Of a stretch of DNA of 64,000 nucleotides, positions 8,249 through 61,784 are shown piece by piece. Each line of letters starts with the position of its first letter. Within the stretch, counting starts at the first letter, position 1. The DNA comes from Octopus vulgaris (Eukaryota), in contig OX597824.1 of the NCBI GenBank assembly GCA_951406725.2, forward strand, positions 36,828,001 to 36,892,000, in the 5' to 3' direction. Both the position numbers and the translations under genes were made by a program. The notes below the pieces were generated by a model. It was not told the origin of the DNA. It made no database searches and saw nothing but the letters and a program-made list of their open reading frames with translations.

Positions 8249-8307
8249 ATTCTATTGATGAAAACAGAGCATTTCTTATGCAGAGCCAGAAATCCAGGAT
8301 CTGGAAT
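8249..8307 (+). ncRNA. Degenerate type I hammerhead ribozyme motif
   Basis: ATTCTA-TTGATGA...GAAA-TCCAGGA-TC-TGGAAT. 6-bp stem I and stem III are present, core C3 is mutated to U, and stem II is poor. Confidence 0.55.
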
Positions 8308-10130
8308 TATCTAGTAATTTTTTTGTTAGTTTATTTTGTCTCTTCATCTTCTCTCCTGGTGCTGTATGAACATTTAATGTGGTCTTAAAGTCAGGTTTTG
8401 GCTGCTATTTCCAGCGTGGTGGTATCTCTTAGATACCCTAAATTATAATTTTACATACATATATATATATACATACATATATATATATACATACATACAT
8501 ATAAACATACATAAATACATACATATGTATACATATATGCATGTATATGTATGTATATATATATATATATATATATATATATATATATATCTTTTACTCT
8601 TTTACTTGTTTCAGTCATTTGACTGTGGCCATGCTGGAGCACCGCCTTTAGCCGAGCAAATCGACCCTGGGACTTATTCTTTGTAAGCCCAGTACTTATT
8701 CTATCGGTCTCTTTTGCCGAACCACTAAGTGACGGGGGACATAAACACACCAGCATTGGTTGTCAAGCAATGCTAGGGGGACAAACACAGACACACACAT
8801 ACATATATATATATATATATATATATATATATATATATATATATACATATATACGACAGGCTTCTTTCAGTTTCCGTATATATATATATATATACACATA
8901 CATACATATACACACACACACAAAATGATTGTTGTAACTATATCACACAGACATAAATAAACAAGGTGATGTAGGATACATATATAAATGCATAATTATA
9001 TTGAAATATGGGGTAAAAATACAATAATTCTTAACCTGGAAATATAAATCAATACTGATGAAATATAAACACATAAACAAATATACATATGCTCATAAAT
9101 ATAAATACACACACACACACACACACACACACACTTGCTTCTCCTACTGCCACTTCTGCAACCACAACTCGTCGTTCTCTCATCCTTCTCCTGTTCACTG
9201 TATCACCAATACTATTCTGCTACCCTCTCCCCATTTTTTTCTGCCCTGTCTGTCATCACCTACTCTTCCTACCTCCTCCTAACTCTATGCATCCACCACT
9301 CCTTATCCACCCTTCAATGCCACCTCATCTTTACACTCATCACTCACCTTCCTTTCCCTTACCCATTCGTTTTTCTCACCACCACGACCACCCCACCACA
9401 CACACACACACACACACACACACACACTGGCAACCTCCACCTGGTTCCTCACCTTCACTCGCTTCTACACATCTTGATACCTCATCATCGCAATTTTTAT
9501 CTCTTGCCAGCTCCACTCAATCTCCTCCATCTTCTCTTCCAAAATGTAGGCCCTTCAAGGCAATAAACCTGTCCTTCTTTGAGCCCTTTTCTCTCATAAT
9601 TTAACCCCTCATCTCCTAGCATAAAGCTACACCATCAAGATTCATAGTTTTGAAGTTACATGGCAACCTCACTAATGCTGTGACACACAAAAAAAAACCA
9701 CCCAGATCATGCTGTAAAGTGATTGGTAATAGGAAGGGTCAAACTATGCTGATGCAGACATTGGAGCACAATGCAATCTTTGGACCCATTGGATTATGTC
9801 TCACTGATCAATCCATGCCAACACAGAACATGGATCTCAAATGACAATTATATATATATATTCTTCTTTTAACATATATATATATATATATATATAACCC
9901 TTGATTCAATAACACCGTGTATAAACTCTATACTTGGAATGACCAATTTTAAATACTATTGGATTTTACTCATAAGGTATTAGAATCTTTTATGTATACC
10001 ATTCTGCCTAAATAATGGATCTACAAATACAATATCCCTGCATATCTCACATCTATTTTCATTCCTCCACCTCACTCGCCATTTCATATTTTATCTAAAT
10101 TAATTATTGCTTAACCATTTTCTCACACCA

Positions 10131-10176
10131 TCTCTGATGAAGAGATATAATAAATATCCTAGAAACAGCTGTAAGA
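10131..10176 (+). ncRNA. Minimal type I hammerhead ribozyme motif in a Penelope-like 3' remnant
   Basis: TCT-CTGATGA-AGAGATAT aataa ATATCCTA-GAAA-CAGCTG-TA-AGA. Intact core, palindromic stem III, weak base of stem II. Confidence 0.7.
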
Positions 10177-10309
10177 CCTTCTATTTATAAATGTTCTAAA
10201 ATCAACACATCTTTGGTTTTTTATCTCATTATGGAAAAAAAATGTTTAATATATTCTTCTTTTCTTATTGATTTCAGCCAGAGGCTGCAGCTTTGTTAGG
10301 GCACTGCAA

Positions 10310-10690
10310 TTAGTGTTAATGTTTGTTTATTTCAAATGCATTTCTTGGCCCTCTCTCCAAAGTCAGTGCTGGGTAAACAAGTTAATTGGACATAGCTGCA
10401 CTACTTTGCATTTTTCACTGCAATGTTGTTTATATCTGATAAAACTTTGTCTAAATATTCTTTGAACACATCCACATCTTCACCTCATAGATCTCCAAAG
10501 CCTTTTGGCAAGGTATCAAAAAGCTGTGGGCCTTTGAACTCTAAAGTGTTATGGTATTGGATTCTTACTCTGAAGGGAGAAAGTAAGATCTTTGATATTA
10601 AGCAAGTGATTAGTGTAGCTTTCATTTCCAAAGTTGGGCACCAAAATTTGTATATTATGTGGTAGGGCTTCAAAAAATAGAATAACACTC
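10310..10690 (-). mobile_element. CR1-like LINE 3' fragment
   Basis: ORF 10485..10688 ...YHNTLEFKGPQLFDTLPK..L resembles the CR1/L2 ORF2 C-terminus. Confidence 0.6.
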
Positions 10691-10806
10691 GATCTGCTAA
10701 GAGAGTAAAGAGAGCTTATAACGAAATCCACAGAACTTGTGAACTTGTGATAGCTATTTACATATATATATATATATATATATATATATATATATATATA
10801 TATAAA

Positions 10807-59983: not shown

Positions 59984-60212
59984 TTAACCCTTTCATTACC
60001 AACCTGGCTGAAACCGGCTCTTGCTCTGTAGTACAAATGTCTTGTTTTCATATGTTTTGAATTATAATCTTCTACCAAACCTTAGTCACAATTTATGTTC
60101 CTAACACTAGCTTAATGATAACCAGGTTATTTTACTAAATTCTTTGTCATATTTAAAGTGATTGAAAGAAACACAGAGCATCTCAAAATAAATACAGTAA
60201 CAAAAGGGTTAA
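59984..60212. mobile_element. piggyBac-like MITE
   Basis: TTAA-CCCTTTCATTAC ... GTAACAAAAGGG-TTAA. Confidence 0.8.
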
Positions 60213-60217
60213 TAAAT

Positions 60218-60361
60218 ATTCTAAAAAGATTTTAATTCTGGTAGGAAGTCATGAGTAGTTTGCAATATTCTACACCATAGTAGCTTGATAAATTTTCTAA
60301 AAAGACTTTAATTCTGGTAAGAAGTCATGAGTAGTTTGCAATATTCTATATCATAGTAGCT
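60218..60361 (+). repeat. Tandem duplication, unit about 75 bp
   Basis: TTCTAAAAAGA.TTTAATTCTGGTA.GAAGTCATGAGTAGTTTGCAATATTCTA...CATAGTAGCT occurs twice. Confidence 0.9.
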
Positions 60362-61484
60362 AGAGATAGCAGTTTGTCAAAAATATTTTTAACATTTTCT
60401 AGCAACAGTTTAGTTAGTCAAAGTAACTGTGACAGAACCCAGGAATGATGAGTTCAAATCTGCTAAAAAAAAGGAAAAAAACGAAAAAGGAAAGAAAAGA
60501 GAACTCCTTAAGTCATTGACATATGGAAGCAACCAAAATGATATCTTTCAAATACACCAAGACTTTCAAAACATTTTACCGAAACATCCAGATTCTTGTT
60601 ATTTGACAAAATGATTGCTGTATTGGAGATTAAGGTGCCGTTGTTCTTGTGTGCTGCCTATTTTGGTTGGCAGGGTAGCAAGTGCATTGTACAGAAAAAC
60701 ACAATCCTACCTAAAACAACTCAGCTACAATGGTAACAGATTTACCAAGAATTCACAAAACACAAAAATATATAAATACTGCAAATAAACAATAAAAATG
60801 AGAAACAGTTATATTGTTCTAAAACAGTAACTAAAACATACAGGATTTTACTAGAGTGACATTGCTACAGAAAACGTGGGTGGTTCAAGAATTTTAAAGG
60901 TTTCATTTAGTGTGGGGGGGTACTTAAGAAACATGGTGTTCTACAGCAGAAAGCTAAAAAAAACAACTCTTAAACAAATTACTTCAAATTCTTCAATTAT
61001 AAAATTGTGGAAATGGGGATAAATTCCATTTAATATGCTGTCTATCATTACTAATGTCAAAAGTTTAATATATTAGGGAAAACTCTGCTTAATAACATAC
61101 TTCACAAGGTAATACAATAAGATCCCTTTCTTTCCCTCTTCTCTCTCTCTCCCTCCTCTCACATTCTCTCTATCTATCTATTTATCCATCTGTCTATCTA
61201 TCTATCTTTCCAGCTACTTTCCTACGCTAAAACATCAACGGGTTATACATTTTCAAGTGAGAAACAACGTATTTTTTTAAATAAATGATATTGGTTTTTT
61301 TTTTTCATAAAATGTATTTCTATTATAGACACACACATATATATGTATATACACACACACACACACACACACACACACATACATACATATATATATAAAT
61401 ATATACAAAAAATTCAGGGTGAATACTTGATAATTGTAAGCACCTGTATATGCCATTTAGTGGTGTAGGTGATAGAGTATATTT

Positions 61485-61784
61485 ATCAAAATAAAAACAT
61501 GATGCAAAGGATTTAGCGGTACATATGTTTCTGGCTTTTATTAGACAGTTTATATCAATGCATAATTGATGTAATATGTATGTCAATAGCCTTCTTCATC
61601 CACGTACAATTACTACTTCAAGGACATGTATTACATTAAAGTAGTAATTGAAGTAGTAATTGTACGCGGCTGAAGAAGGCTATTGACATACATATTACAT
61701 TAATTATGTGTTGATATAAACCGTCTAATAAAAGCCAGAAACATATGTACTGCTAAATCCTTTGCATCATGTTTTTATTTTGAT
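61485..61784. mobile_element. Foldback element (about 136-bp arms) with a hammerhead motif in each arm
   Basis: 61485-61621 is the reverse complement of 61649-61784; flanked by TA-rich microsatellites. Confidence 0.92.
61666..61753 (+). ncRNA. Type I hammerhead ribozyme (right arm)
   Basis: GCGG-CTGAAGA-A-GGCT[long loop]AGCC-A-GAAA-CATATG-TA-CTGC, intact core. The left-arm copy has ATGAAGA. Confidence 0.75.

Follow-up and report, generated by a model that had tools for sequence, protein, structure and literature searches.

In the genome of Octopus vulgaris we found what is likely a hammerhead of scrambled block order (type SGC), a candidate ribozyme lodged inside an animal non-coding retroelement with thousands of copies, and this is the new part of the analysis. 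The window, that is, the whole stretch of DNA analysed, covers 64,000 nt (assembly GCA_951406725.2, contig OX597824.1, positions 36,828,001 to 36,892,000 of the forward strand), and most of its hammerhead motifs are ends of broken copies of known Penelope-like elements (PLEs), which is known biology. We consider it probable that these motifs mark the 3′ termini of insertions of Penelope type, and that the element at position 19743 is non-coding, likely cleaves itself, probably when dimeric, and likely owes its copying to PLE enzymes. According to the accessible part of Eckert et al. (2023, PMC10085705), type-SGC hammerheads were reported from metatranscriptomes and none from genomes of known organisms, and as far as the available text of such reports goes, our literature search found no genomic case, only reports from environmental RNA.

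Hammerhead motifs in the window and the genome

A strict type I descriptor matched the window six times, whereas 200 local dinucleotide shuffles gave 0.1 matches on average (maximum 2), and its versions with one core change matched three, against 0.37 in the shuffles. These results upheld the claim of a previous sequence-only reading that the motifs are not chance. The reading had listed about 15 hammerhead motifs from unrelated families, and 14 of these 15 sites indeed belong to ten repeated families whose copies carry the hammerhead core (Table 1). The exception is the look-alike at 33676, where positions 33675 to 33722 (+) hold the family B tail in antisense; the core position is not CUGA in the tail copies examined. 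Type I topology, claimed for all sites, applies to the type I hammerheads of the remaining families but not to 19743, which has another permutation. Likewise, the core called intact at seven sites was judged too generously at 10131 (a stem II mismatch) and 51445 (a 2-bp stem I), both of which fail the strict descriptor, and the partial motif at 55591 belongs to a real family but had been placed in the wrong register, the window copy being without the half that holds the true core. The very large ribozyme load expected for the genome was borne out by 55,585 exact type I core patterns, compared with 9,660 control matches. Overall, the earlier observation is partly confirmed and its interpretation partly supported: the motifs are real hammerheads of several unrelated families, tied to PLEs, (TA)n targets and 5′ inversions, but the view of them as non-coding elements is wrong in the main.

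One of the six strict matches, at 11843 and absent from the earlier list, was rejected as a chance match, its family consensus being without the core; presumably this family resembles a LINE RT motif on the opposite strand. A loose descriptor allowing up to two core changes matched 19 of 120 random window stretches, so family membership alone decided on partial motifs. When five window motifs were folded as single strands, most came out no better than shuffles (z from 0.37 to −2.29). Rfam analysis of the whole window gave no hammerhead among the 150 of 168 rows listed, and a local scan gave an HH9 match at 46474–46549 with 20.3 bits, below the cutoff of 52.

Table 1. Hammerhead motifs and their carrier elements in the window (window positions).
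Feature	Position	Strand	Remarks
Decayed family H type I hammerhead	8250–8306	+	
Family E 3′ end (Hydra-type PLE)	9877–10254	+	hammerhead 10131–10176; U4C in most family copies
Family A, short subfamily	10805–11010	−	~205 nt, TA on both sides; hammerhead 10902–10936, U4C core
Family A, long subfamily; truncated Neptune-type PLE 3′ end	11077–11235	+	hammerhead 11125–11159
5′-truncated Hydra-type PLE	13580–15870	−	between TA tracts; 3′ UTR, hammerhead, tail
Broken RT and GIY-YIG ORF of Hydra-type PLE	about 15855–14188	−	upstream of the 13.8-kb motif
Type I hammerhead, long stem II, palindromic stem III	13800–13887	−	family B relative
5′-truncated SGC-family element (family I)	19518–19860	+	adjoins TA tract 19458–19516
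Decayed candidate type-SGC hammerhead	19743–19818	+	arm strand, block S, block G, connector, block C
Family K element	29146–29509	+	hammerhead 29344–29428; inverted piece 29009–29144
Tailed 3′ end of family B (Hydra-type PLE)	33626–33901	−	hammerhead 33796–33877
Family B inverted 5′ copy	33917–34077	+	hammerhead 33941–34022, G12 change
Family D 358-nt retrozyme-like unit	46325–46700	−	canonical type I hammerhead 46491–46539
Inverted 5′ piece of family D insertion	46725–46882	+	
Family F, old and diverged	51398–51495	−	minimal hammerhead 51442–51480
Family J, truncated inside hammerhead	55578–55675	+	only GAAA and cleavage-site half left
Family C 3′ end, one inversion arm	61478–61621	−	hammerhead 61516–61603, C3 change
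Second inversion arm, 3′ end of family C (Hydra-type PLE)	61648–61791	+	hammerhead 61666–61753

Families with type I hammerheads

Judged by their sequences, families A, B, C and E are the 3′ ends of 5′-truncated PLEs of the Hydra and Neptune types. The elements had previously been taken as non-coding, which is wrong for these four families, whose ORFs lie upstream, and applies only to family D and the SGC families. The insertions have a constant 3′ end, with or without a tail; they are 5′-truncated to varying extents, show 5′ inversions and target (TA)n. In family B, the hammerhead is situated 254–554 nt downstream of the endonuclease (EN) in 30 of 30 loci, and locus L226 holds a 741-aa RT and EN frame. 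Its translation ends in a GIY-YIG domain without CCHH, in which CxxC and CxH flank E and N, as in the Hydra clade (Craig et al. 2021, PMC8557442; Hydra-1_Obim), and the (TA)n target and the hammerhead at the 3′ end are also shared with the PLEs of that clade. Unlike the Hydra clade, family B has an Asn-rich linker without CxCx5C (found in 0 of the 14 linkers read through, compared with 36 of 45 homologs), yet it ends in (TA)n; because of this linker we call it Hydra-type, an assignment made from the C-terminal motifs of 5′-truncated copies. Hydra-like ORFs were also found upstream in 9 of 20 family E loci and in one family C locus, the latter ORF having the CxCx5C linker. Upstream of family A, one locus revealed a Neptune-type ORF: the L285 translations contain DKG, a CX2-5CxxC linker and a GIY-YIG domain with CCHH, all expected of Neptune elements; the placement follows these motifs, and the GIY-YIG match itself is weak (E 0.0019, below the cutoff). 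Pfam did not recognise the PLE RT in the PLE translations. None of the 45 homologs has an informative name. Five short motifs of these families were absent from the supplement text of PMC8557442, in which line breaks could hide matches.

Among the other families, same-strand endonuclease matches, at most candidate links to the motif, were present upstream in 1 of 20 J loci and 2 of 20 K loci, and none was found for families H and F. Families A, B, C, E, H, J and K resemble the minimal type I hammerheads of PLE pseudo-LTRs (Cervera and de la Pena 2014, PMC4209133) in their palindromic stem III, in the extra base that most have between 9 and 10.1, and in occurring as single motifs from truncated PLEs and as opposite-strand pairs. 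They differ in the very long stem II of B, C and K, in the dominance of U4C cores in A-short and E, and in octopus counts that reach tens of thousands.

The proposed link to (TA)n agrees with the 3′ ends of eight families and fails for two. Against a background of 6.5–22%, (TA)n was enriched at the 3′ ends of A (23/30), B (28/30), C (23/25), H (15/20), J (13/20), I (11/20), K (10/20) and E (9/25); D (5/30) and F (1/25) showed no enrichment. As for the suggested inverted pairs, the foldbacks at 33.7–34.1 kb (98%) and 61.5–61.8 kb (94%) fit insertions with a single 5′ inversion, while the pair at 10.9–11.2 kb (87%) consists of two family A subfamilies on either side of one TA tract.

Family D has the sequence features by which non-LTR retrozymes are recognised, and its placement among them appears direct. 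Animal non-LTR retrozymes are non-coding, PLE-linked, head-to-tail or circularly permuted hammerhead units (Cervera and de la Pena 2020, PMC7229834; Li et al. 2026, 10.64898/2026.07.22.740005); family D is non-coding, has a 358-nt period within the 150–450-nt range, head-to-tail copies of up to ~1.9 units, and a canonical type I hammerhead with a 6-bp stem I that is HH9-like. Its consensus folds strongly as a circle (−140.7, compared with −94.1 when shuffled). We dropped a count of compensatory pairs for which only 3 of 30 rows matched, and no young copies were found, the best being 82% identical to the query. A reading of 46325–46834 as a MITE with terminal inverted repeats was rejected; the inverted arm varies among copies and is absent from most.

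A candidate type-SGC hammerhead at 19743

As identified from sequence and predicted pairing, the site at 19743 holds the decayed remains of a hammerhead whose blocks follow a non-circular order, namely the cleavage site (S), GAAA (G) and CUGANGA (C). Reading it as type I would require three fixed core changes and leaves stems I and III unpaired in the family, and this reading was discarded. The predicted cut falls after position 19761; in this copy G12 has changed to A, stem III has two mismatches and the bulge base has changed, and stem I still pairs. Genome-wide, one SGC pattern gave 6,667 matches compared with 13 in the control, and another gave 2,679 compared with 1. A generic SGC descriptor picked up, unprompted, a second family of different sequence (10 matches, none on reversed loci). 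The upstream block, which is not part of the search pattern, pairs in 16 of 29 genomic matches (one of them, L459, being a TA-tract artefact) compared with 1 of 110 matches in metagenome contigs, whose ~350 scattered matches served as the negative control. Rfam gave no hammerhead match for one intact SGC copy.

The stems were assessed on 23 hand-picked sequences that are related to one another. Stem III was paired in 94.8%, stem I in 92.2% and stem II in 91.3%, compared with 41–53% in slid controls, and double changes numbered 86 compared with 31.8 in shuffles (0 of 500 as high); two of five covariation measures were not above shuffles (41/500 and 484/500). Across subfamilies, 3 of 5 pairs in stem I and 4 of 5 in stem III change on both sides. 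Could this block order and pairing be a coincidence amplified by copy number? The copies may share few masters, so that counts are not independent; against this, there are three sequence groups comprising several subfamilies, with differing yet still pairing stems I and III, and swapping partners between copies lowers pairing from 8.12 to at most 7.8 of 10. We regard coincidence as having a negligible chance of being right. Free nested folds, which cannot score pseudoknots, favour other structures by 9–19 kcal/mol.

A hammerhead descendant that no longer cleaves, kept as a PLE-protein-binding or RT-positioning structure, deserves more weight. In vitro cleavage by minimal PLE hammerheads is poor, and further roles were left open for them (PMC4209133); the most abundant families here (A-short and E) spread with a U4C core that is less active in vitro (PMC3088659), and SGC stem II is weak: its 4 pairs often include two G-U pairs, and 1 of the 4 changes on both sides. 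However, both cores are kept though the subfamily stems differ, together with A15.1-U16.1 (U-A in 22 of 23 rows), a non-G at H17 and G10.1-C11.1 (G-C in 20 of 23 rows, three rows being out of register). This conservation also holds in loci chosen without regard to the core: among 28 loci selected by their 3′ end only, 17 reach the motif, two look-alikes having been dropped by eye, and 9 of these 17 have both cores intact. We hold a non-cleaving relic to be improbable.

Carrier element and candidate dimer mechanism

In two SGC subfamilies the carrier appears, from the ends and spacing of its copies, to be a non-coding unit of ~780 nt that has (TA)n as its insertion target and ends of Penelope type. 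The unit measures 781 nt in subfamily I2 and 784 nt in I3, and the longest sense ATG frame of the I2 unit is 87 aa. Of 29 I2 copies, 23 share one end point, 4 stop 50 nt beyond it, and 26 end in (TA)n. The unit could instead come from an autonomous PLE, of which it would be the long 3′ end, the ORF lying beyond reach, as in families A, B, C and E; families A and C revealed their ORF only past ~2 kb of UTR, and subfamily I1, to which the window copy belongs, yielded no more-than-unit copy, so that the unit length is known from I2 and I3 only. This is nevertheless a long shot, since 5 of the 29 I2 copies exceed one unit and contain the sequence of their 3′ end two times, 781 nt apart, I3 shows 784 nt, no same-strand ORF was found near SGC copies in 60 plus 30 loci, and no PLE ORF in 30 loci. 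A search for a tandem master locus gave partial duplications only, with no locus holding two whole units in tandem. Four sequencing runs show cover of the sequence; such cover carries no ends, strand or level.

The non-coding unit seems to work like a retrozyme without being a member under the existing definition: it is non-coding and, for I2 and I3, has more-than-unit copies, but its hammerhead has SGC order instead of type I and its unit exceeds the reported 150–450 nt. Unlike non-LTR retrozymes, it occurs as dispersed truncated copies and its self-pairing is not unusual (the 781-nt I2 unit as a circle, −136.5, is no better than shuffles at −143.8). Compared with HRIMA-1 and its variants (Eckert et al. 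2023, PMC10085705), the octopus motif shares the S-G-C order, the conserved core, the pseudoknotted stems I and II and the short stretch that links these two stems, and differs in being present as DNA, in thousands of copies within a retroelement of an animal genome, in its long stem III arm and in the absence of a clear helix that would connect stems I and II. For such a helix between their distal ends, matched and cross-family values differ slightly (−7.5 and −6.1 kcal/mol).

Stem III extends into an arm of ~17 base-pair steps, from whose end block C is only 1–4 nt away. Folding this arm back within a single molecule would hardly be feasible, and block C would thus likely dock into a second copy, which would limit cleavage to tandem transcripts. 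Alternatively, the motif may be an active ribozyme that cleaves as a monomer, the long arm being an alternative fold or bent at a small internal loop. SGC ribozymes cleave in vitro, and published SGC RNAs do so co-transcriptionally, some of them without a linker between distant helices (PMC10085705); moreover, pairing in the arm (77.8%) is below that of the core stems. On the other side, 4 of 7 arm pairs covary and the inner-loop sequence of the arm is conserved across SGC families, and by geometric estimate the loop beside stem III (1–3 nt) and the linker to stem I (1–4 nt) are too tight for a U-turn. Monomer cleavage is a serious competitor, albeit an unlikely one.

The proposed course is as follows. 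A transcript longer than one unit would be cut by its ribozymes into unit RNAs, which might be closed into circles; (TA)n DNA would be nicked by the GIY-YIG endonuclease of a PLE, and reverse transcription by the PLE RT would begin within the RNA, giving rise to two 3′ ends and to copies slightly over one unit. The complete proposal, a ~780-nt SGC retroelement lineage, the first from a cellular genome, that cleaves only as a head-to-tail domain-swapped dimer and spares monomer circles, is put forward tentatively, at somewhat less than an even chance.

Among the type I families, family B would be an example of (TA)n targeting by a Hydra-type PLE that lacks the cysteine linker to which this role was ascribed, and very abundant families have spread with a weakened U4C core. 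Descriptors applied to animal genomes were for type I or III hammerheads and Rfam was silent on an intact copy, so SGC elements may have been missed elsewhere. Non-circular hammerhead permutations have so far had no known host organism or job; with thousands of copies in a genome, and compensatory changes that arose naturally, they would gain both. The octopus copies would be ready constructs for probing how SGC hammerheads fold and whether dimer gating is general for Penelope-linked ribozymes.

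Hammerhead families in the window and across the genome

The sequence-only reading had listed 15 hammerhead sites as motifs beyond chance, and the descriptor searches bore this out in part: the strict type I descriptor gave 6 matches in the window vs. 0.1 in shuffles, and its one-change versions gave 3 vs. 0.37. Since 19 of 120 random stretches contained a loose partial motif by chance alone, each site was judged by its genomic family. The searches of the 2.8-Gb genome (227 contigs) yielded first-look candidates, not copy numbers, of 2,711 for family A, 1,555 for B, 1,259 for C, 794 for D, 3,530 for E, 67 for F, 1,823 for H, 2,997 for I, 213 for J, and 166 for K. 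A hammerhead consensus was present in every family alignment, each made of the 20–30 best copies. Families with such a consensus explained 14 of the 15 sites, and the site at 33676 was rejected as the family B tail read antisense.

The exact type I core pattern, which misses families with long stems or with C replacing U at core position 4 (U4C), had 55,585 matches genome-wide vs. 9,660 in the control, and a count for family A alone gave 8,086 exact cores. Three window sites fitted this pattern by eye, that is, one per 21 kb vs. one per 50 kb genome-wide. The window is thus somewhat richer than average, and the genomic ribozyme load is large. Among the first 100 listed matches (contig C1), about one third belonged to a type I family absent from the window, and many further families occurred, several as opposite-strand pairs. 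Two additional hammerhead families were seen at the loci L237 and L238, one lying 3′ of a Hydra ORF whose cysteine linker is intact and the other, with a changed core, adjoining a family A copy.

The short subfamily of family A is about 205 nt long with a fixed 5′ end, and the U4C core was found in 26 of 30 short copies vs. 4 of 20 long copies; it was also counted manually in 72 of the first 100 exact family A cores listed. The U4C core dominates family E as well, of which the CUGA copy in the window may be a product of CpG decay. The presence of a myosin exon in the window implies that many of the hammerhead insertions may be intronic, and minus-strand hammerheads may lie in the sense of the myosin introns.

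Locations of features in the window and at fetched genomic loci
Feature	Location	Strand	Remark
Family E, U4C-dominated	10131-10176		
Short family A, U4C-dominated	10805-11010		
Fragment	11790-11950		presumably a LINE reverse transcriptase remnant
Hydra-type PLE remnant	13580-15870	minus	ends in the 13.8-kb hammerhead motif
Repeat of 166-186 nt	22994-23513, 37132-38203		tandem and inverted copies
Minisatellite	26040-27166		33 nt, 34 copies, 93% matches
Exon of myosin motor domain	40647-41108	minus	PF00063, E 3e-15
Fragment	43547-43912		presumably a LINE reverse transcriptase remnant; no Pfam match
Hammerhead, minus-strand example	46491-46539	minus	
Inverted repeat, 261 nt	55682-56393		98% complementary, beside a family J fragment; inner palindrome at ~55975-56092
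Additional hammerhead family	L237:1840-1885	minus	
Additional hammerhead family	L238, ~1500-1550		
Family B with Asn-rich linker	L226:3012-5234; L197-L229		

Penelope-like and retrozyme-like sources

The 3′ end is fixed among family B copies, some of which bear a tail of about 150 nt; the copies are variably truncated at the 5′ end and frequently carry 5′ inversions. A GIY-YIG endonuclease (EN) was reached upstream of these copies. In the reverse test, the EN search gave 16,074 candidates, and in all 30 loci checked the B hammerhead stood 254–554 nt downstream of the EN; at L226, a 741-aa frame comprises RT plus EN. The family B motifs agree with the Hydra clade of Penelope-like elements (PLEs) as described by Craig et al. 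(2021, PMC8557442), whose listing already includes a hammerhead-bearing Hydra element from octopus. The CxCx5C linker of this clade is missing from family B (0/14 vs. 36/45 homologs). The family B linker is Asn-rich, yet 28 of 30 loci end in (TA)n, which bears on the idea that the linker sets the target.

Hydra-like ORFs were also found upstream of family E (9 of 20 loci) and family C (one locus), and a Neptune-type ORF lay beyond a UTR of about 1.9 kb in one family A locus. The elements had been read as non-coding; instead, most families probably represent the 3′ ends of PLEs. Cervera and de la Peña (2014, PMC4209133) described minimal hammerheads from truncated PLEs that often occur in pairs on opposite strands, and Frangieh (2024, PMC11167929) gives internal RT initiation as the tail source. 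This part of the swarm is known biology. At L342, a near-perfect palindromic element sits in a TA tract of a PLE UTR, about 240 nt inside a family C copy.

The proposal of non-coding hammerhead elements inserting at (TA)n held in part for family D, which fits a non-LTR retrozyme as portrayed in PMC7229834 and the Li 2026 preprint, but showed no tie to (TA)n. Its consensus has a repeat period of 358 nt, a canonical hammerhead with a 6-bp stem I, and a strong fold as a circle. The family is old, and its copies are circularly permuted partial tandems 80–90% identical to the consensus.

A candidate permuted hammerhead in family I

The consensus of the family behind site 19743 failed as type I but has GAAA placed upstream of CUGAUGA. 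Block S holds a stem III strand, UH, and a stem I strand; block G a stem II strand, GAAA, and a stem III strand; and block C a stem I strand, CUGANGA, a bulged A, and a stem II strand. The blocks follow in the order S-G-C, named type SGC, for which Eckert et al. (2023, PMC10085705) demonstrated cleavage and reported no occurrence in genomes of known organisms. In the accessible literature, which covers few subscription papers, a genomic SGC was reported neither in work on this type, on non-circular permutation, or on retrozymes with permutation nor in work on hammerheads of cephalopods or octopus (including PMC13725137).

The G-to-C block pattern had 2,679 matches vs. 1, and a broader SGC pattern had 6,667 vs. 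13. A generic SGC descriptor led to subfamily I2, which differs in sequence but matches in geometry and has the connector in common, and two family I subfamilies show compensatory differences in stem III and in the arm, a further helix beyond it. In 23 picked copies, aligned by sequence only with three out-of-register copies left in, 87.9% of pairing cells were paired vs. 75.9% in shuffles, and double changes numbered 86 vs. 31.8; two other covariation measures on these copies did not beat the shuffles. A core-independent sample comprised 28 distinct loci chosen by the 3′-end motif alone (5,976 genomic matches). Nineteen of them were within four mismatches of the SGC motif; after two look-alikes were discarded by eye, both cores were intact in 9 of the remaining 17. 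In the other nine of the 28, the motif region was cut short or deleted. The copy in the window, a member of subfamily I1, has lost G12 and the integrity of stem III.

Predicted folding and carrier of the SGC motif

Stem III extends through an internal loop, which resembles a loop E or bulged-G motif, into a second helix that also covaries; the whole arm spans about 17 steps and ends 1–4 nt before block C. In the hammerhead fold, stem I is directed away from stem III, so that one molecule could not easily form the arm plus stem I. Two antiparallel copies would accommodate both, with block C of each docking into the loop of the other. Counted against these proposals were the weakness of stem II, competition from nested folds, the lack of a clear helix between stems I and II, and no excess circular folding of the SGC unit. 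The motif is probably an active ribozyme; dependence of cleavage on the dimer is a more tentative proposal, to which we give somewhat over half of that likelihood.

The units measure 781 nt in I2, where the 3′ end sequence recurs at this distance, and 784 nt in I3. The 781-nt unit contains no sense ATG frame longer than 87 aa. Among the 29 aligned I2 copies (30 fetched), 3′ ends fell at one site in 23 and at another, 50 nt beyond it, in four, 26 copies ended in (TA)n, 5′ ends were variable, and five copies were longer than one unit. Taken together, these features are the signature of PLE insertion, here with a template that is non-coding and longer than one unit. The I2 stretch was partly present in sequencing runs X1–X19 under four organism codes, which suggests that this family may be common to related species. 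The swarm in its originally proposed form was already known; what is new is the SGC element, a variant of an established kind.
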